From: a virus
Lineage: Duplodnaviria; Caudoviricetes
Length of the DNA stretch: 64,000 nucleotides
Virus record (IMG/VR): IMGVR_UViG_3300022848_000005
Strand: one strand, 5' to 3'
Shown: positions 49,232 to 64,000 of the stretch, one piece after another
How the letters are laid out: the number at the start of each line of letters is the position of its first letter
Numbering within the stretch: position 1 is the first letter of the stretch
Notes under the pieces: model-generated
The model's database searches: none
What the model saw: only the letters and a program-made list of their open reading frames with translations
What the model was told of the DNA's origin: nothing
Made by a program: the position numbers and the translations under genes

Positions 49232-50917
49232 ATGGCTTGGAAAAAATATTTTAAAATAAGCAATGACGTAGATACTGGGTACATTTCAGAATCTGCTAAA
49301 CCGACCCCTGGATTCCGTAACTATCAGAGCCAACTACCTGAAGTTTATATCGGACACCCTAATCGTGTTGAGCGTTATTCTCAGTACGAGCAAATGGACA
49401 TGGACTCTGAAGTCAATGCGGCTCTAGACACTATCGCAGAGTTCTGTACTCAGAAGAATATTGAAAACAACACTGCTTTTGACCTTGTATTCAAAGAAAC
49501 GCCTAGTGATAGCGAAATTAAAATTATTAAAGAACAACTGCAAAACTGGTGTAGTCTAAACAAACTAGACCAACGTATGTTTAAGATGTTTAGGAACGTG
49601 TTAAAGTACGGTGACCAGGTATTTGTTAGAGATCCAGAAACATTTGAAATGTACTGGGTTGAGATGTCAAAGATTGTTAAGGTCATTGTTAACGAAAGCG
49701 ACGGCAAAAGACCAGAGCAGTATGTTGTTAAAGACCTAAACCCTAACTTTCAGAACTTAACAGTTTCAGCAGTTACCACCAGCGATGTATATACCAACCG
49801 CCCACAAGTAGGTGGTCCTAATGGTGCTTACATACAACCCAATGCACCTTATGGTAGCGGTGGCTCACGTTTTACTAATGCACAAAACGAGTCTGTTGTT
49901 AATGCTGAACACGTTGTACACACTAGTCTGACAGAGGGGTTAGATGTTAATTGGCCCTTTGGAAATAGCATTTTAGAGAACGTTTTTAAAGTCTTTAAGC
50001 AGAAAGAACTACTTGAAGACGCTATTATTATATACAGGGTACAAAGAGCCCCAGAGCGTAGAGTATTTTATGTTGATGTGGGTAACATGCCAGCACATAT
50101 GGCTATGGCATTTGTTGAGCGTGTTAAAAACGAGATACATCAACGTAGAATACCAACACAAACTGGTGGCGGCACTAACATGATGGATGCCACATATAAT
50201 CCACTCAGTATTAACGAAGACTATTTCTTCCCACAGACCGGAGAAGGTCGTGGGTCTAAAGTAGAAACACTACCAGGTGGGCAGAACCTAGGCGAGATCG
50301 ACGACTTGCGTTTCTTTACAAACAAGTTGTTTAGAGGCCTACGTATTCCTAGCAGTTATTTGCCAACTGGTCCAGAAGATGGTTCACAATCTGTAAGCGA
50401 TGGGCGTGTAGGTACTGCACTTATTCAGGAATGGAGGTTTAATCAGTATTGTAAACGTCTACAGCGCATGGTTGTCGAAAAACTTGACACAGAGTTTAAG
50501 ATGTTTATGCGTTGGCGTGGCATCAACATAGACAACAGTTTATTTGATTTACACTTTAACGAACCACAAAACTTCAGTAGAAACAGACAAGCAGAGCTAG
50601 ATAACACCCGTATTAATGCGTTCTCTAATTTAGAAGCAGTGCCCTACTTAAGTAAACGCTTTATGTTACAGCGGTTCTTGGGTCTTAGTGAAGAAGAAAT
50701 GCGTGATAACGAAGAGCTCTGGAAAGAAGAAAATGGTACAGATGCTGTACCAGGTATGGACGCAGGATTACGTAGTGTTGGCGTTACGCCAGCAGGTATT
50801 GACGCTGACTTAGAAGTAGCGACTCCTCCAGAGGTACCAGAAGAGAATCCAGAAGCTAACGTAGACGTACCAGCAGGCCCAGAAGCATCTGCAAGTCCGG
50901 TTCCGGTCAGACAATAA
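49232..50917 (+). CDS. gp20: Portal vertex protein
   Basis: LLEDAIIIYRVQRAPERRVFYVDVGNMP, EDYFFP, VETLPGGQNLGEIDD. Confidence 0.95.
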   Translation: MAWKKYFKISNDVDTGYISESAKPTPGFRNYQSQLPEVYIGHPNRVERYSQYEQMDMDSEVNAALDTIAEFCTQKNIENNTAFDLVFKETPSDSEIKIIKEQLQNWCSLNKLDQRMFKMFRNVLKYGDQVFVRDPETFEMYWVEMSKIVKVIVNESDGKRPEQYVVKDLNPNFQNLTVSAVTTSDVYTNRPQVGGPNGAYIQPNAPYGSGGSRFTNAQNESVVNAEHVVHTSLTEGLDVNWPFGNSILENVFKVFKQKELLEDAIIIYRVQRAPERRVFYVDVGNMPAHMAMAFVERVKNEIHQRRIPTQTGGGTNMMDATYNPLSINEDYFFPQTGEGRGSKVETLPGGQNLGEIDDLRFFTNKLFRGLRIPSSYLPTGPEDGSQSVSDGRVGTALIQEWRFNQYCKRLQRMVVEKLDTEFKMFMRWRGINIDNSLFDLHFNEPQNFSRNRQAELDNTRINAFSNLEAVPYLSKRFMLQRFLGLSEEEMRDNEELWKEENGTDAVPGMDAGLRSVGVTPAGIDADLEVATPPEVPEENPEANVDVPAGPEASASPVPVRQ

Positions 50918-50931
50918 TAAATAATACTATT

Positions 50932-51150
50932 ATGTTACTAAACGAATTCTTAAAGAAAGATGAAGGCGAAAGTTACCCTAGTAATAACGATGATAACAGC
51001 GTTTATAAACTAAGTGACTTACGTAAGACCAGGCTCACATTGGCACAATTAAATAAGCTCAGGAATATAAGGGACGTTAAAAAAATTGAAAAATCTAAAA
51101 AAATAGAAGACGTTAGGCAACAATATAAGCCCGCACCACAGTCAATGTAA
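50932..51150 (+). CDS. Small hypothetical protein after portal
   Basis: ATAAATA 8 nt upstream; RKTRLTLAQLNKLR. Confidence 0.7.
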   Translation: MLLNEFLKKDEGESYPSNNDDNSVYKLSDLRKTRLTLAQLNKLRNIRDVKKIEKSKKIEDVRQQYKPAPQSM

Positions 51151-51272
51151 TAGCAAAAAGTTATTTGTTTTAGTGTTTTCACACTAAAACTACCCAAAAA
51201 ACCTCCTTTTTGCAGTGTAAATCTGCACCTCCGTTAAATACTACTATAATACTACTATAGGAGTAACTTCGC

Positions 51273-51923
51273 ATGAGTACAAAGTATGAACAGTTGATTG
51301 AATATATCATCAACGAAGAAGAGGATAAGGCAAAAGCACTCTTCCATGATATCGTAGTTCAAACTAGTCGTGACATCTATGAGAATCTAATTGACGAAGA
51401 CGATTTTTCTGAAGAAGAAACAGTGGATGACATGTCAGATGCTATCGAAGCTGATGAAGAAGGTATCAGTGAAGAAGACGACGAGATGGACATGGACGAC
51501 GAAGAAGAGTCAGAAGAGTCAGAAGAGTCAGAGCCAGAAATTGAAGATCGAGTTATGGATCTTGAAGACGCATTAGACCAACTCAAAGCTGAATTTGATG
51601 CCATGTTGGACGATGACGGCGACAAAGAGCCTGAAATGGACATGGAACTGGATATGGGTAACATGGGCGACCAAGAAGAGTCAGTAGAAGAACATGAAGT
51701 TGTTAGAGAATATGTTGATAAAGTTGCTCAGCCTGCTAATAATTCAGAAGCTGTCACATCACCAGTTGCTCGTAAGAACGACATGGGCGGTAAAGCAGTT
51801 GATCCTACCGGTGAAGAAAACGGTGGTTCTACTCCTAAGGTCGCACCAGGTAAGTCTTACAAGAATACCGCTGGTGGCAAAGCACCTTTAGAAAGAGCAC
51901 CTGCCGCTAAGACAGGTGAGTAA
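51273..51923 (+). CDS. Acidic prohead core-like protein (gp67/68 position)
   Basis: Very Asp/Glu-rich; between portal and protease; TTAAATA (51234-51240) and AGGAG upstream. Confidence 0.65.
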   Translation: MSTKYEQLIEYIINEEEDKAKALFHDIVVQTSRDIYENLIDEDDFSEEETVDDMSDAIEADEEGISEEDDEMDMDDEEESEESEESEPEIEDRVMDLEDALDQLKAEFDAMLDDDGDKEPEMDMELDMGNMGDQEESVEEHEVVREYVDKVAQPANNSEAVTSPVARKNDMGGKAVDPTGEENGGSTPKVAPGKSYKNTAGGKAPLERAPAAKTGE

Positions 51924-51946
51924 TTAGAGTTAACTAAGGATAAACA

Positions 51947-52570
51947 ATGACATTACTTAAAGAACATTTAACATTTGATGCGGCCCGTATGGTAACAGAA
52001 GGCTCTGACGATGGTAAAGATATGTTTATGAAAGGTATTTTCATTCAGGGTGGTGTTAAGAATGAAAATAAACGAATTTATCCTGTTTCAGAAATCTCTA
52101 ATGCAGTCAGTACTGTCAATGAACAAATTAAGGGTGGTTACTCCGTTTTAGGCGAAGTTGACCATCCAGATGATTTGAAAATTAACTTAGATCGTGTTAG
52201 CCACATGATTACTGAAATGTGGATGGACGGACCTAATGGTTTTGGTAAATTAAAATTATTACCAACCCCAATGGGACAATTAGTAAAAACTATGTTAGAA
52301 TCGGGCGTCAAACTTGGTGTAAGTTCTAGAGGCAGTGGTCAGGTCTCAGAATCATCAGGAGACGTTAGCGGTTTTGAAATTGTAACAGTAGATGTAGTTG
52401 CACAACCAAGTGCTCCTAACGCATATCCAACAACTGTGTATGAAGGGTTGATGAATATGAGGGGCGGACACAAGGTTCTCGAAATGGCAGCTGATGCCGG
52501 TGCAAATCAAAAAGTACAGAAGTACTTAAAAGAGCAAGTAACACGCTTAATTAAGAACTTAAAAATTTAG
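51947..52570 (+). CDS. gp21: Prohead protease
   Basis: KGIFIQG..N.N.RIYP, GEVDHP, GVSSRG. Confidence 0.93.
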   Translation: MTLLKEHLTFDAARMVTEGSDDGKDMFMKGIFIQGGVKNENKRIYPVSEISNAVSTVNEQIKGGYSVLGEVDHPDDLKINLDRVSHMITEMWMDGPNGFGKLKLLPTPMGQLVKTMLESGVKLGVSSRGSGQVSESSGDVSGFEIVTVDVVAQPSAPNAYPTTVYEGLMNMRGGHKVLEMAADAGANQKVQKYLKEQVTRLIKNLKI

Positions 52571-52579
52571 GAGATCCGT

Positions 52580-53677
52580 ATGTTAGAAGCAATCAAACCA
52601 TTGCTAGATAGCGGAATTATTAACGAAGAAACAGAGATAGCAATTAATGAGGCGTGGGAAGCAAAACTTTCTGAAGCTAAAGAAATTGTTCGTTCTGAAC
52701 TCCGTGAAGAGTTTTCGCAACGCTATGAACATGACAAATCCGTCATGGTTGAGGCTTTAGACAAAATGGTCAACGAGTCTTTATCTAAAGAACTTCAGGA
52801 ATTCGCTGAAGACAAGAAGAGATTAGCAGAAGATAGAGTTAAGTACAACACAAAGATGTCTGAAACAGCAGATAAGTTTAAAGGCTTCTTAGTTGGTAAA
52901 CTAACCGATGAACTCAAAGAGTTACGTGAAGACCGCAAGACAATGGCTGGTACAATGGCCAAAGTTGAGCAGTTCGTTATTCGTCAACTTGCTGAGGAAC
53001 TTAAAGAATTCGAACAGGACAAGAAAGCCATTGTGGAAACAAAGGTCAGACTTGTTACTCGAGCGAAGGAAAAGTTAGATGAACTTAAGACTAAATTCGT
53101 TGCTAGATCTTCCGCATTAGTTAAAGAAACAGTTGCTACAAATCTAGAGTCTGAGTTAACTCAACTCAAAGAAGACATCCAAACAGCTCGTGAGAATATG
53201 TTTGGGCGTAGATTGTTTGAAGCATTTGCAGGCGAATTTGCTGGTACTCACTTAAATGAGAATCAGGAGATTAAAAAACTTATGAGCATTATTGCTCAGA
53301 AGGATGTGAAACTTGCAGAAGCTACACAATCACAAGAGGAAGCTAAGAAATTAGTTGAATCTACAAAGAGCGAAATTAAAGTCATTAAGGAATCTAGTGA
53401 GAGAAAAGAAACACTCAATGGATTACTTAGTACATTAAACAAAGAGAAAGCCACGGTAATGCGTGACTTGCTCGAATCAGTGCAGACCGATAAACTTGGA
53501 TCTGCATTTGACAAGTATTTGCCAGCAGTACTTAATAATTCCAAGATCGAACACGCCGCAAAGCACGTTCTTTCAGAGAACAAAAAAGTAGTAACTGGTG
53601 ATAAAATCACTGCAAAAGACGTTGTTAAGGAAGATGGCACTAATATCATCCAACTAAAGCGTTTAGCAGGGCTATAA
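52580..53677 (+). CDS. gp22: Prohead scaffolding protein
   Basis: Long acidic coiled coil between gp21 and gp23. Confidence 0.8.
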   Translation: MLEAIKPLLDSGIINEETEIAINEAWEAKLSEAKEIVRSELREEFSQRYEHDKSVMVEALDKMVNESLSKELQEFAEDKKRLAEDRVKYNTKMSETADKFKGFLVGKLTDELKELREDRKTMAGTMAKVEQFVIRQLAEELKEFEQDKKAIVETKVRLVTRAKEKLDELKTKFVARSSALVKETVATNLESELTQLKEDIQTARENMFGRRLFEAFAGEFAGTHLNENQEIKKLMSIIAQKDVKLAEATQSQEEAKKLVESTKSEIKVIKESSERKETLNGLLSTLNKEKATVMRDLLESVQTDKLGSAFDKYLPAVLNNSKIEHAAKHVLSENKKVVTGDKITAKDVVKEDGTNIIQLKRLAGL

Positions 53678-53708
53678 ATTAATAAATTATTATTAGGAGA
53701 AAACTGAA

Positions 53709-54893
53709 ATGTCAGATAATTTACTAGAAGGCCGTTGGGGTGAGACCAAAGAAGCTCTGTTAGAAGGTTTACAAGGTTCCCGCCGTACAACAATGTCTTC
53801 CATATTGGAAAACACAAGAAAGCACTTAGCAGAATCCGCCACTGGCGGTGCAACAACTAGTGGTAACGTTGCAACTCTTAACCGAGTTATTCTTCCCGTA
53901 ATTAGACGAGTTATGCCAACTGTTATTGCCAACGAAATTGTTGGAGTACAGCCAATGACTGGTCCAGTTGCACAGATTCACACATTACGTGTGCGTTACG
54001 CTGAAACAGCAACATCTACAGCAAGTGCACCGTTTAATACAAACACAACATCAGGTGACGAAGCACTTTCACCATTCAAAATTGCCACAGCATACTCTGG
54101 TTCAACATCAACTGGTCGTGCAGACAGCACAGCATCATTTGAAGGTTCACCAGGACGTAAGATCAACGTTCAGATCTTAAAGCAAGTTGTTGAAGCTAAA
54201 ACACGTAAGCTATCAGCTCGTTGGACATTTGAAGCCGCACAAGACGCACAGTCAATGCACGGTTTAGATGTTGAAGCAGAGATTATGGCTGCATTAGCTC
54301 AAGAGATCACTGTTGAAATTGACCAGGAAGTACTTGGTTCTTTACGTAGCCTTGCGGCAACTGAAGAAACATACAACCAGGCAGCAGTATCTGGTACAGC
54401 TACTTACGTTGGTGACGAGCATGCCGCATTGGCAGTTCTTATCAACAGAACAGCAAACAAGATTGCACAAAGAACAAGACGTGGTGCAGGTAACTGGGCA
54501 GTTGTTTCCCCAGCCGCACTAACAGTTTTACAGAGTGCAACAACATCAGCTTTCGCACGGACAACTGAAGGCACATTTGAAGCACCTACAAACACTAAGT
54601 TTGTTGGTACACTAAATGGCGCAATGAAAGTTTATGTTGATAGCTATGCAAGTGACTCAACCGCAGTTCTAGTTGGTTATAAGGGTTCAAGCGAGGCAGA
54701 TGCCGCGGCTTTCTATTGCCCATATATTCCATTAATGAGCAGTGGAGTTGTTCTTGATCCAGCAACGTTTGAGCCAGTAGTTGGCTTTATGACTCGCTAC
54801 GGATACGTAGAGCTCACAAATTCCGCTTCATCGCTCGGTAACGCCGGCGATTATCTGGGTGAAATTGCCATAAGCAATTTGTCCTTCTCATAA
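53709..54893 (+). CDS. gp23: Major capsid protein
   Basis: GVQPMTGP, VEAKTRKLSARWTFEAAQDAQSMHGLDVEAE, AFYCPYIPL, FMTRYG. Confidence 0.96.
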   Translation: MSDNLLEGRWGETKEALLEGLQGSRRTTMSSILENTRKHLAESATGGATTSGNVATLNRVILPVIRRVMPTVIANEIVGVQPMTGPVAQIHTLRVRYAETATSTASAPFNTNTTSGDEALSPFKIATAYSGSTSTGRADSTASFEGSPGRKINVQILKQVVEAKTRKLSARWTFEAAQDAQSMHGLDVEAEIMAALAQEITVEIDQEVLGSLRSLAATEETYNQAAVSGTATYVGDEHAALAVLINRTANKIAQRTRRGAGNWAVVSPAALTVLQSATTSAFARTTEGTFEAPTNTKFVGTLNGAMKVYVDSYASDSTAVLVGYKGSSEADAAAFYCPYIPLMSSGVVLDPATFEPVVGFMTRYGYVELTNSASSLGNAGDYLGEIAISNLSFS

Positions 54894-54945: not shown

Positions 54946-54969
54946 AAGGGGTCGCAAGGCCCCTTTTTT
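54946..54969 (+). terminator. Rho-independent terminator after gp23
   Basis: AAGGGGTC-GCAA-GGCCCCTT-TTTT. Confidence 0.9.
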
Positions 54970-54977
54970 GTGGCTAA

Positions 54978-55121
54978 AAGAAGCAGTCAGCAGAAACCAT
55001 CGCTAAAAAAGCAGAATTATTGCGTGGACAGCCCAGAGAGAAACGTTATTGTCAACATTGTGACAGGCAGATCTCACTTGGTTGGTACAATAGACACAGT
55101 GACAACTGTAAGTCAAAATAA
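54978..55121 (+). pseudogene. Start-less remnant of a homing-endonuclease C-terminal zinc finger
   Basis: KKQSAETIAKKAELLRGQPREKRYCQHCDRQISLGWYNRHSDNCKSK*; in-frame stop immediately before and no start codon. Confidence 0.6.
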
Positions 55122-55122
55122 C

Positions 55123-55153
55123 TTGACTTAACTCCCGACTTACTGTATAAATA
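55123..55153 (+). promoter_or_regulatory. Composite sigma70 plus late promoter of the riboswitch unit
   Basis: TTGACT-N17-TATAAA, with the -10 embedded in TATAAATA. Confidence 0.7.
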
Positions 55154-55159
55154 TATATA

Positions 55160-55209
55160 CGTTCAGGCAATAGCCCGGAAGTAGACTTTACTATTAGTCG
55201 AAGGAACGC
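55160..55209 (+). ncRNA. glnA-type (glutamine-I) riboswitch aptamer 1
   Basis: CGTTC-A-GGC(AATA)GCC-CGGAAGTA-GACT(ttactatt)AGTC-GAAG-GAACGC matches the glnA three-way-junction consensus. Confidence 0.85.
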
Positions 55210-55217
55210 ATTATCAT

Positions 55218-55266
55218 CGTTCATCTCAAAAGAGACGGAAGTAGGTAATGGTTACCGAAGGAACGC
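55218..55266 (+). ncRNA. glnA-type (glutamine-I) riboswitch aptamer 2
   Basis: CGTTC-A-TCTC(AAAA)GAGA-CGGAAGTA-GGTAA(tgg)TTACC-GAAG-GAACGC; P2 and P3 differ from aptamer 1 while pairing is kept. Confidence 0.85.
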
Positions 55267-55294
55267 ACCTAACTGTAAGAAGGAGGGTGTTGAC

Positions 55295-55396
55295 ATGACA
55301 TTGTGGACTCGATATTGTAGAGCTCATGCACAACAAGACTATCATAAGGCTTGTATGCTTAAATTGTTTCTGTTACGTGCATTTGTACACTACTAA
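55295..55396 (+). CDS. 33-aa peptide downstream of the tandem riboswitch (not in ORF track)
   Basis: AAGGAGG SD 8 nt before ATG; MTLWTRYCRAHAQQDYHKACMLKLFLLRAFVHY. Confidence 0.7.
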   Translation: MTLWTRYCRAHAQQDYHKACMLKLFLLRAFVHY

Positions 55397-55413
55397 TAAG
55401 TAAGCATCAATTT

Positions 55414-55441
55414 AAGGGATCGAAATTTGATCCCTTTCTTA
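55414..55441 (+). terminator. Terminator closing the riboswitch-peptide unit
   Basis: AAGGGATC-GAAATTT-GATCCCTT-TCTT. Confidence 0.75.
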
Positions 55442-55454
55442 TGGCTTCATAATC

Positions 55455-55462
55455 TATAAATA
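55455..55462 (+). promoter_or_regulatory. Late promoter (exact T4 consensus)
   Basis: TATAAATA. Confidence 0.7.
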
Positions 55463-55577
55463 CTACTGTTCAGTAGTTAGGTAAACAGGAAAATTTTTCC
55501 TGTCCAAACTGACTTATGCTGTTCCCACAGCGTAGCGACTAGAACTCGCATTGGACTTCTTAACAAGGAGAAAACAA

Positions 55578-56012
55578 ATGGGAAGACCTATTAAAACTGC
55601 CGAATCAGTTGGCGGCAATCTTAAAGTAGCATCAGCATCAACAGCATTACCAATTGGTTCAAATGCTCTAAGTGGCAATCAAATAGTTATGAAAGCATAC
55701 ATTACAGGCGGTAGTGTTCAAGACACAACACTAGTTCTACAAAAAGGAACAAAGAAATTCCGTTGTACAAATAGTGATGGAACCGAGTCTCTGCAATTAA
55801 CATCAGTAGTGCATGGTTCATTAGCACAAGGACAATGTCAGATTACTGGTACAGATAGTGCCGGTGGTACTTACTTTGCAAGTAAAATTACAGGACGTCA
55901 TTTTCATGTAGGCAATCTTGGAACAGGATCACAATTTGCAGTTGGTGATAAGGCTTTATTAGTCGCATCAGGACCAGAAGCAAATGTAAGTGTTTCAGTA
56001 CCGAACAGTTAA
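55578..56012 (+). CDS. Hypothetical virion-module protein (MGRPIK start, 144 aa)
   Basis: AAGGAG SD precedes the ATG at 55578; the track's TTG at 55551 is probably not the start. Confidence 0.75.
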   Translation: MGRPIKTAESVGGNLKVASASTALPIGSNALSGNQIVMKAYITGGSVQDTTLVLQKGTKKFRCTNSDGTESLQLTSVVHGSLAQGQCQITGTDSAGGTYFASKITGRHFHVGNLGTGSQFAVGDKALLVASGPEANVSVSVPNS

Positions 56013-62924: not shown

Positions 62925-64000
62925 ATGGCTGTTACAAGAATTAAAGCGAATCAGATTTCTGATTCAGCAGTCGAATCTGCAAAACTTGCAGATTTAGCAA
63001 TTACCGCAGGAAAATTAGAAAACAACTTAACATATGGTTCGAATCTAACAGTTACTGGCAACTTAATAGTTAACGGGACCACAACAACAGTTGATTCAAC
63101 TAACACAACAGTGGCAGATCCAATTCTATTGCTTTCAAAAGGAGCAACTGGATCAGGCACAGTTGATGCAGGTATCGTTGTTGAAAGGGGAGACGACAAC
63201 AACGTTGCCATATTATGGGACGAGTCAGCAGACCAGTTTGTCGTAGCTGTCACAGCAAGTGAAGCAGGTTTAACGGCAGGTAACGTTACACTAACAAGTT
63301 ACGCAAACTTACAGGCAGGGACACTTACTGCAAGCGCACTTGACGTAACCGGTACGCTCGATATTGATAACATTCAGATCGACGGTAACACAATGAGTAG
63401 TACAGATACAAACGGTGCAATTAACCTAACACCAAACGGCAGTGGTGAAGTTGTTATTGCAACTGCTACAGTCAGTGACTTGACAGATAACAGAGTTGTT
63501 ATTGCAGGCACAAGTGGTGCACTTGAAGATGACACAAACTTCACGTATGATGGCACTAACTTAACAGTCAATAGTGCAGTTGTTACTGATTTGACTGACA
63601 ATAGAGTTGTTATTGCTGGTACTTCAGGAGCACTTGAAGATAGCGCAACCTTCACGTATGATGGCACTAACTTAACAGTCAATAGTGCAATTGTTAGTGA
63701 TTTGACTGACAATAGAGTTGTTATTGCAGGCACAAGTGGTGCATTGGAAGATGATGCAAACTTTACTTGGGATGGTACAGACTTAAATCTTACTGGTGGC
63801 TTGAATGTTACTGGTGATTTAGCAGTTGACAATATTGCAGTTAATGGCAATGCTATTACATCAACTGACACAAATGGCAATATTACAATTACACCAGATG
63901 GTACAGGTGATTTAGTACTTGACGGATTAAAATTCCCACAAGCAGATGGTACAGCAGGATATGTTCTTACAACAGACGGTAGTGCTCAACTAAGTTGGAC
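62925..64000 (+). CDS. Long tail-fibre-like protein, truncated by window edge (not in ORF track)
   Basis: AGGGAG SD then MAVTRIKANQISDSAVESAKL...GNLIVNGTTTTVDSTN; open to the window end. Confidence 0.85.
   Translation, partial: MAVTRIKANQISDSAVESAKLADLAITAGKLENNLTYGSNLTVTGNLIVNGTTTTVDSTNTTVADPILLLSKGATGSGTVDAGIVVERGDDNNVAILWDESADQFVVAVTASEAGLTAGNVTLTSYANLQAGTLTASALDVTGTLDIDNIQIDGNTMSSTDTNGAINLTPNGSGEVVIATATVSDLTDNRVVIAGTSGALEDDTNFTYDGTNLTVNSAVVTDLTDNRVVIAGTSGALEDSATFTYDGTNLTVNSAIVSDLTDNRVVIAGTSGALEDDANFTWDGTDLNLTGGLNVTGDLAVDNIAVNGNAITSTDTNGNITITPDGTGDLVLDGLKFPQADGTAGYVLTTDGSAQLSW
63477..63790 (+). repeat. Three 111-nt (37-aa) tandem repeats in fibre gene
   Basis: DLTDNRVVIAGTSGALEDD/S..FTYDGTNLTVNSA starting at 63477, 63588 and 63699. 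Confidence 0.85.

Follow-up and report, generated by a model that had tools for sequence, protein, structure and literature searches.

A tandem glutamine riboswitch cassette beside the capsid gene of a T4-related jumbo phage and its probable derivation from small-genome marine Burkholderiales

Introduction

What does a glutamine sensor control when it stands beside a phage capsid gene, and where might it have come from? The question is raised by a 64,000-nucleotide stretch of the IMG/VR virus record IMGVR_UViG_3300022848_000005 (the whole stretch analysed, hereafter the window), in which two glutamine riboswitch aptamers and a short gene form a compact unit, referred to below as the cassette. 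The source record is 289 kb long, is estimated to be about 80% complete and represents a T4-related jumbo phage. The cassette has two aptamers and a covarying helix that masks the Shine–Dalgarno (SD) sequence, its peptide gene is under selection, and a homologous cassette is present in bacteria. Taken together, we consider it likely that the locus is a self-contained late-region glutamine-switch cassette that is common to, and probably derived from, the host lineage and that gates a small peptide. Glutamine riboswitches in phages, their tandem copies and the riboswitch class itself have already been published. What is new is the combination of a non-cyanobacterial host lineage sharing the cassette, an undescribed peptide family, covariation in the SD mask, a link to the absence of GlnE and an overlooked open reading frame (ORF) in the phage Melnitz.

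Results and Discussion

Tandem glutamine aptamers

A preliminary description of this DNA had proposed a phage-encoded tandem riboswitch of the glnA type, and a search with the Rfam glnA model (RF01739), which it had suggested, bore this out. Both aptamers matched over the full length of the model (positions 1–53 of 53), and both scores (48.4 and 61.9 bits) exceeded the gathering score of 35. These were the only two RF01739 aptamers across the 289-kb record. The two complete aptamers stand in series, with 3 nucleotides (nt) between them, ahead of a single SD mask. The P1 helix is CGUUC/GAACG in both, whereas the two copies have unlike sequences in P2 and P3, which nonetheless pair in each. This internal covariation, also pointed out in the preliminary description, is seen in the window and recurred on a larger scale in an alignment of 54 distinct tandem leaders, assembled from IMG/VR matches to the junction pattern plus bacterial examples. 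In that alignment, RNAalifold pair counts gave many compensatory double changes in the P2 and P3 helices of each aptamer (for example, UA in 32, AU in 15, GC in 4 and CG in 3 leaders at columns 50–63), and the strands CGGAAGUAG and GAAGGAACGCA of the three-stem junction (P1, P2 and P3) were invariant. On this sequence evidence, the two aptamers form a type-1 glutamine riboswitch in tandem arrangement. The tandem-junction pattern was matched by more than 117 IMG/VR contigs, and 52 distinct complete phage loci were surveyed.

A covarying helix over the ribosome-binding site

The tail of the second aptamer continues into a hairpin in which GCACCU pairs with GGGUGU. The latter overlaps the 3′ end of the SD sequence, and the ribosome-binding site (RBS) would therefore be masked by default. 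Two inner pairs (C55273–G55282 and U55274–A55281) add to the hairpin, and SD bases 55281, 55282 and 55285–55287 were > 97% paired in the predicted ensemble. Loss of the first two mask bases, G55265 and C55266, changed the predicted energy of the hairpin from −10.2 to −6.3 kcal/mol.

In the 54 leaders, the four core pairs of the mask (columns 149–152 with 171–174) were CG in 54; AU in 53; UA in 24, CG in 22 and AU in 8; and CG in 43 and UA in 11, with one non-pair in total. Two of the mask pairs thus alternate among two or three Watson–Crick types without a break. The tail after P1 reads CACC, CAUC, CAAUC, CACU or CAUU, and in every case it has a matching partner, GGUG, GAUG, GAUUG, AGUG or AAUG, at the 3′ edge of the SD. 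When each tail was folded with its own SD region, the mean energy was −8.8 kcal/mol, compared with −5.1 kcal/mol with partners from another tail class. A pairing of CACC with GGTG had been offered earlier as a possible translational expression platform; it proved to be part of a 6-bp helix with compensatory changes in relatives, and covariation strongly supports the identification of this SD-masking helix as the translational expression platform of the cassette.

Promoter and terminator

The cassette appears to have its own transcription signals. In all 12 main-type phage cassettes (12/12), TTGACT and TATAAATA were conserved and the sequence of the spacer between them was variable; in the window, TATAAATA ends 4 nt ahead of the Rfam aptamer match at 55158. 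A late box of the form [ACT]TAAATA lay within 45 nt upstream in 50 of the 52 phage loci, compared with 3% of random windows, and in 35 of those 50 it ended 6–8 nt before the start of the leader as cut by the analyst. In the bacterial homologues described below, TTGACA, a spacing of 17–18 nt and TAnnnT lie equally far from the aptamer. Given the conserved TTGACT at 17 nt and the homologous bacterial promoter, it is plausible that the promoter is of both the sigma-70 and the late kind, in which case TATAAATA at 55146–55153 would double as a −10-like element and a T4-type late-promoter box. The suggestion that the switch acts at both early and late stages of infection is read from promoter-like sequence. 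For the late stage, the frequency of the late box in the phage loci gives strong comparative support; for the early stage, the sigma-70 reading is taken from TTGACT at its 17-nt spacing and from the bacterial promoter.

At the other end, a GC hairpin followed by a T-run was kept at the terminator position in the related loci L004 and L005, where the sequence of the stem differs, and a hairpin with a T-run occurred within 90 nt of the stop codon in 39 of the 52 phage cassettes. The downstream late gene has its own TATAAATA, and the unit stands alone. Promoter, SD, short ORF and terminator, which had been listed as the parts of a mini transcription unit, are thus all present in the sequence, and the terminator is retained in relatives with an altered stem.

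A 33-residue peptide under selection

The gene behind the switch encodes a peptide of 33 amino acids (aa) belonging to what we call family A. Its ORF, SD and ATG were conserved in relatives, and substitution rates indicated that it is under purifying selection (median ratio of nonsynonymous to synonymous substitution rates, dN/dS, 0.26; 99% of 88 pairs below 1). Family-A peptides begin M-T-L-W-T-R-Y-C-R and continue as a basic amphipathic helix. AlphaFold2 predicted a single helix over residues 3–32 (pLDDT 89), and the net charge is +4. The best conserved residues, W4, Y7, C8, A12, D15, K18, L22 and L26, share one face of this helix in a helical-wheel reading of alignments A2 and A5. In our reading, the peptide is a putative small regulator with a binding partner.

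A search of 1.84 billion representative proteins with the family-A profile returned 11 clusters of 34–72 aa, and gene callers predict the peptide in metagenomes. It had no Pfam match even at E-values up to 10 and none in PHROGs or the ESM Atlas. Among 50,697 records of cultured phages, neither blastn with the cassette nor tblastn with the peptides of family A and family B (described below) gave a match; the homologue in Melnitz, discussed in the final section, surfaced through the Rfam model alone. Assignment of the peptide to DUF4278, the family of the cyanobacterial protein IF17, was considered and rejected: it had no Pfam DUF4278 match, and hhalign against phage DUF4278 peptides returned a probability of 0.07%. 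The broader view that every peptide behind such a switch is a diverged DUF4278 protein was likewise dropped, because hhalign found no relationship between families A and B, B and C, or A and C.

Occurrence in phages

A tandem switch preceded an ORF of 32–65 aa in 52/52 phage loci. The peptides fell into family A (14 loci), family B (25 loci; beginning MTKYQ and ending NPFY-like), family C, which is DUF4278 (4 loci; E 4.9e-9), three smaller families (3, 3 and 2 loci) and one orphan. Cassettes of the family-B type were also found in SAR86 genomes.

The capsid gene has 599 relatives in IMG/VR. Among 80 capsid-gene relatives, only the nearest had the cassette, and the others had the gene led by a freshwater-2 RNA straight after the capsid gene. 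At least 12 contigs with capsid proteins 83–95% identical kept the cassette at exactly this place. The position next to a gp23-like capsid gene, already remarked on in the preliminary description, is thereby confirmed and extended to relatives.

Bacterial carriers and origin of the cassette

The phage SufB protein is 94–95% identical to SufB of two small Burkholderiales metagenome-assembled genomes (MAGs), with DNA identity of about 80% and unmatched flanks. Both MAGs carried one tandem switch each, together with a family-A peptide, among ordinary bacterial genes. In the bacterial genome G001, the switch lies between a gene for a 4HBT/PaaI-type thioesterase and a gene for a putative TonB-dependent receptor (read from the translation), and the unit consists of a sigma-70 promoter, the tandem switch, a 35-aa family-A peptide and a terminator. 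This synteny was repeated in two further bacterial contigs. In bacteria, the genes downstream of this monocistronic unit vary or are convergent. Within that GTDB family, 8 of the 29 genomes had the switch (carriers of 1.2–2.1 Mb), compared with 2 of 151 sampled from the order. Betaproteobacteria bacterium TMED22 and the single-cell genome AH-141-I18 are among the named carriers. In a loose tandem-junction pattern scan of genome contigs, most matches were due to chance, and about 10 fetched loci proved real after filtering with an aptamer regular expression.

One bacterial contig, G119:C27 (L453, 7690–8080, minus strand), which has genes for PdxA, CobW, a FemAB-like protein, NadE and P-II, bears a phage-type cassette. 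Phage and host have thus evidently exchanged sequence. On the same contig, the segment comprising the aptamer tail, SD and peptide is tandemly duplicated, giving a fused ORF of 72 aa (P0001).

By these sequence matches, the cassette is common to the phage and to small-genome marine Burkholderiales, the likely host lineage, from which the phage copy was probably derived. The cyanobacterial gifB system, in terms of which the preliminary description had framed the phage, gives way here: the cassette matches heterotrophic marine Burkholderiales, and the peptide is not a gifB/DUF4278 product.

Proposed mechanism and its alternatives

The features above would fit together as follows. The RNA would start at the first aptamer, from a promoter readable as both sigma-70 and T4-type late. 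By default, the GCACCU–GGGUGU pairing would mask the RBS of the 33-codon gene. In the model for the cyanobacterial gifB riboswitch, bound glutamine draws the C immediately after P1 into long-range pairing with the aptamer core, and the short helix next to it melts; by homology, glutamine would weaken the mask here, and translation of the peptide would be switched on. The upstream aptamer probably sharpens the response through cooperativity. The basic 33-aa helix, with its one conserved face, would then act on a partner, for which host glutamine synthetase (GS) is our leading guess, with IF7/IF17 as the functional analogue.

GS comes to mind from the genomes of the carriers. The phage encodes neither GS nor GlnE, the GS adenylyltransferase. 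GS is general in the host family, and GlnE had no match in 8/8 switch carriers or in three others and was present in the other 18 of the 29 genomes. In a sample of the SAR86 order, the switch was found in 33 of 61 genomes and a GlnE match in 0 of 61; in this order (genomes G179–G242), switches above the cut-off were often tandem and occupied up to five sites per genome. Cyanobacteria control GS by small inhibitor proteins and not by covalent modification (PMC6212724), and in other phage contigs DUF4278, the IF17 family, occupies the slot behind the switch. The pattern, a correlative one, fits a scheme in which switch-controlled micro-proteins replace adenylylation as GS feedback. By this analogy, GS is a possible target of the peptide, which we name only tentatively. 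An equally tentative extension is that family A, and perhaps the other, unrelated families too, are convergent analogues of IF7/IF17 with which streamlined, GlnE-less aquatic heterotrophs (this Burkholderiales clade and SAR86) shut down GS at high glutamine, and that their phages captured the module and placed it under a late promoter.

The same RNA mechanism could serve a peptide with a target other than GS, such as P-II/AmtB, GOGAT, a NadE-type glutamine-dependent amidotransferase or a phage process such as lysis timing, and we regard this as a serious possibility, albeit one that we do not favour. The peptide is without homology to IF7/IF17, P-II was found in every genome of the host family (29/29), and at least six unrelated peptide families stand behind tandem switches, so their targets need not all be one; moreover, the authors describing Melnitz speculated on lysis timing (PMC9004378). 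However, no particular alternative target is indicated, the genes flanking the bacterial unit (the 4HBT thioesterase gene and variable downstream genes) are uninformative, and the lack of GlnE matched with the presence of the switch fits GS best.

The direction of the switch could also be the reverse of that proposed. Since the mask helix directly adjoins P1, on which it could stack, glutamine might stabilise P1 together with the stacked helix and thereby repress translation. We consider such an OFF switch unlikely. For the gifB riboswitch, the C just 3′ of P1 was postulated to leave a short RBS-blocking helix on glutamine binding, and both tested types of glutamine riboswitch activate translation in vivo (Klahn et al. 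2018, PMC6212724). The counterpart of that C in the window is C55266, the second base of the mask. Together, the mask-release model for gifB and the in vivo activation by both types lead us to read the locus as a translational ON switch.

Less probable still is that the short ORF is merely a leader, with the output being read-through into the downstream late gene or an RNA acting in trans. The unit does lie directly upstream of a conserved late gene with a structured freshwater-2 leader, and the U-tract of the terminator is interrupted. Nevertheless, the peptide appears to be under purifying selection, the terminator persists in relatives with an altered stem, the gene downstream is preceded by a separate TATAAATA, which is retained in relatives lacking the cassette, and the downstream genes in bacteria differ or are convergent. 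A recently captured passenger without a role in infection, as absence from most capsid-gene relatives and the variable spot after the capsid gene might suggest, is equally improbable given the shared position in the contigs with diverged capsid proteins, the phage late box on the promoter, the continued selection on the peptide and the analogous cassettes in other phage lineages.

Several observations nevertheless weigh against the cassette as proposed. The minimum-free-energy fold of the whole leader misses aptamer 1, and we therefore rely on the covariance model and covariation. As both P1 helices are identical in sequence, RNAalifold favours a swap in which the 3′ P1 strand of aptamer 1 pairs with the 5′ P1 strand of aptamer 2. 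The promoter and the terminator of the cassette were both missed by simple consensus scans; the promoter escaped because its TATAAA lacks the final T that the scan demands. The ON direction is borrowed from cyanobacterial homologues, and hhalign detected no similarity of the peptide to DUF4278 or to other switch-linked peptide families. The GlnE pattern in Burkholderiales concerns one clade represented by incomplete MAGs, so that it probably reflects one evolutionary event. Finally, the direction of transfer is uncertain, as G119:C27 bears the phage-type version.

The swapped P1 pairing involves columns 69–73 with 85–89 and 11–15 with 140–144 of alignment A3 and is possible in every tandem leader examined. 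As a speculation, this state might be a misfold that couples the two aptamers and forms the basis of cooperativity.

Genomic context of the cassette

The features of the locus are collected in Table 1. The elements follow one another as promoter, aptamer 1, linker, aptamer 2, SD, 33-codon ORF and a hairpin with a U-rich tail, up to the next TATAAATA.

Table 1. Coordinates of the cassette and its neighbours in the window.
Feature	Position	Strand	Details
Major capsid protein gene (gp23-like)	53709–54893	+	ORF; ~67% nt identity to annotated major head genes of PA5oct and 121Q
Promoter (plausible, dual character)	55123–55153	+	TTGACT 55123–55128; 17-nt spacer; TATAAATA 55146–55153
Glutamine riboswitch aptamer 1 (type 1, glnA RNA)	55158–55212	+	RF01739, 48.4 bits, E 1.5e-7
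Glutamine riboswitch aptamer 2 (type 1)	55216–55269	+	RF01739, 61.9 bits, E 2.9e-11; 3′ tail feeds the expression platform
SD-masking hairpin	55265–55290	+	GCACCU (55265–55270) with GGGUGU (55285–55290), 6 bp; −10.2 kcal/mol
Shine–Dalgarno AAGGAGG	55280–55286	+	Read from sequence
33-aa peptide gene (family A)	55295–55396	+	ATG at 55295; conserved ORF
Intrinsic terminator (predicted)	55414–55442	+	Hairpin 55414–55436, −13.1 kcal/mol; U-rich tail
Next, separate late unit (3′ border of the cassette)	55455–55580	+	Second TATAAATA 55455–55462; freshwater-2 RNA 55493–55580

Upstream, a block of portal, protease, scaffold and capsid genes (49232–54893) has approximately 67% nucleotide identity to the jumbo phages PA5oct and 121Q. 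After the stop codon of the capsid gene at 54893 come a terminator hairpin and its T-run, which ends at 54969, as read from sequence and fold. Between this terminator and the cassette lies a short ORF (33–53 aa, with CxxC and further Cys/His; 54970–55131). At this site, an unrelated ORF is present in L004 and L005, and the stretch immediately downstream of the capsid gene is thus variable in what is inserted there.

Downstream, the freshwater-2 RNA (RF02980) scored 64.7 bits against a cut-off of 49.9; the Rfam cmscan of the whole window gave three matches above gathering scores, namely this RNA and the two glutamine aptamers. It is the 5′ leader of a 144-aa gene (55578–56012) that comes after the capsid gene in these T4-related phages, and the Rfam model takes in the SD and ATG of that gene. 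An ATAAATA-type late box is always found upstream of the leader (window, L005, L013, L018, L022, L023, L025, L030, L034, L037, L038, L053 and L063). In these phages, the freshwater-2 RNA appears to serve as a late-gene leader. To our knowledge, the motif is known only from metagenomes, and a literature search on it returned nothing relevant. The 144-aa protein had no Pfam or PHROG match.

The window and the stored genome record differ at 12 positions, mostly near both ends (74–161, 18997, 31462 and 63981–63986), none of which is near the cassette. A 9-nt word, TTCAGTAGT, common to the bacterial 3′ untranslated region and the phage sequence after the cassette, was considered as a microhomology trace of capture; the idea was dropped because the word is limited to the window and L005 (one of nine related loci with a freshwater-2 match).

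Implications

The presence of glutamine riboswitches in Burkholderiales and SAR86 means that the published claim that they are confined to cyanobacteria, in which the GS inhibitor IF17 is under their control, no longer holds. In earlier sightings in phages, the target of the switch was left open or, for Melnitz, given as transfer-messenger RNA (tmRNA). The present results lead to a hypothesis that is open to test in culture (Melnitz and OM43 strain H5P1), namely that small switch-controlled peptides are nitrogen-status effectors exploited by phages. If this is true, phages would steer host nitrogen assimilation during virion production through a late-promoter module, and a general, so far unrecognised nitrogen-feedback circuit would exist outside cyanobacteria. 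For annotation, the consequence is that genes of 32–65 aa behind glutamine switches have been systematically missed or placed on the wrong strand.

Comparison with known systems

The glnA RNA motif was described by Weinberg et al. (2010; PMC2864571), and tandem copies, as found here, were already known among glnA RNAs generally. The leader of Synechocystis gifB, which encodes IF17, shares with the cassette an RF01739 aptamer, a position in the 5′ leader of a very small protein gene and bases 3′ of P1 that pair with the RBS. The owners differ, being a jumbo phage and heterotrophic Burkholderiales instead of a cyanobacterium, as do the product, here a 33-aa predicted helix without the DUF4278 signature, and the promoter, which has a T4-type late box in place of an NtcA site. 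Furthermore, the SD mask is backed by covariation here, whereas it was merely postulated for gifB. With IF7/IF17 themselves the likeness is one of analogy only, as there is no sequence similarity: in each case, very small basic proteins are tied to nitrogen status in owners without GlnE-type adenylylation. In Methanosarcina, the small protein sP26 is a regulator of GS.

Among phages, glnA RNA has been listed in cyanophages such as S-CREM1 (PMC9964418). The cyanophage DUF4278 cassettes (family C) resemble that of the window in their late-promoter box, tandem aptamer, SD mask and small peptide. In contrast, the peptide in the window belongs to an unrelated family (hhalign 0.07%) and the phage to another host lineage, and the window cassette is without a gene nested in the aptamer loop.

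The OM43 phage Melnitz (MZ577097) is, like the window phage, a phage of a streamlined betaproteobacterium. It has an RF01739 aptamer at 46398–46446 (52.8 bits), behind which stand a CACU/AGUG mask, an SD and a plus-strand ORF at 46469–46567 (L455:1572–1670). In an hhalign comparison, the 32-aa product could be aligned with family A (probability 89%, E 2.3e-6), of which it is a probable homologue. This ORF is unannotated and is overlapped by an annotated antisense coding sequence of 33 aa at 46492–46593, which is probably spurious. Melnitz differs in having a single aptamer that adjoins the tmRNA gene, whereas the window has two aptamers adjoining the capsid gene. Buchholz et al. (2022; PMC9004378), who described Melnitz, took the switch to control the tmRNA and saw none in the host; for the window phage, in contrast, the likely host lineage carries the same cassette. 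The assignment of the Melnitz switch to tmRNA thus merits re-examination.

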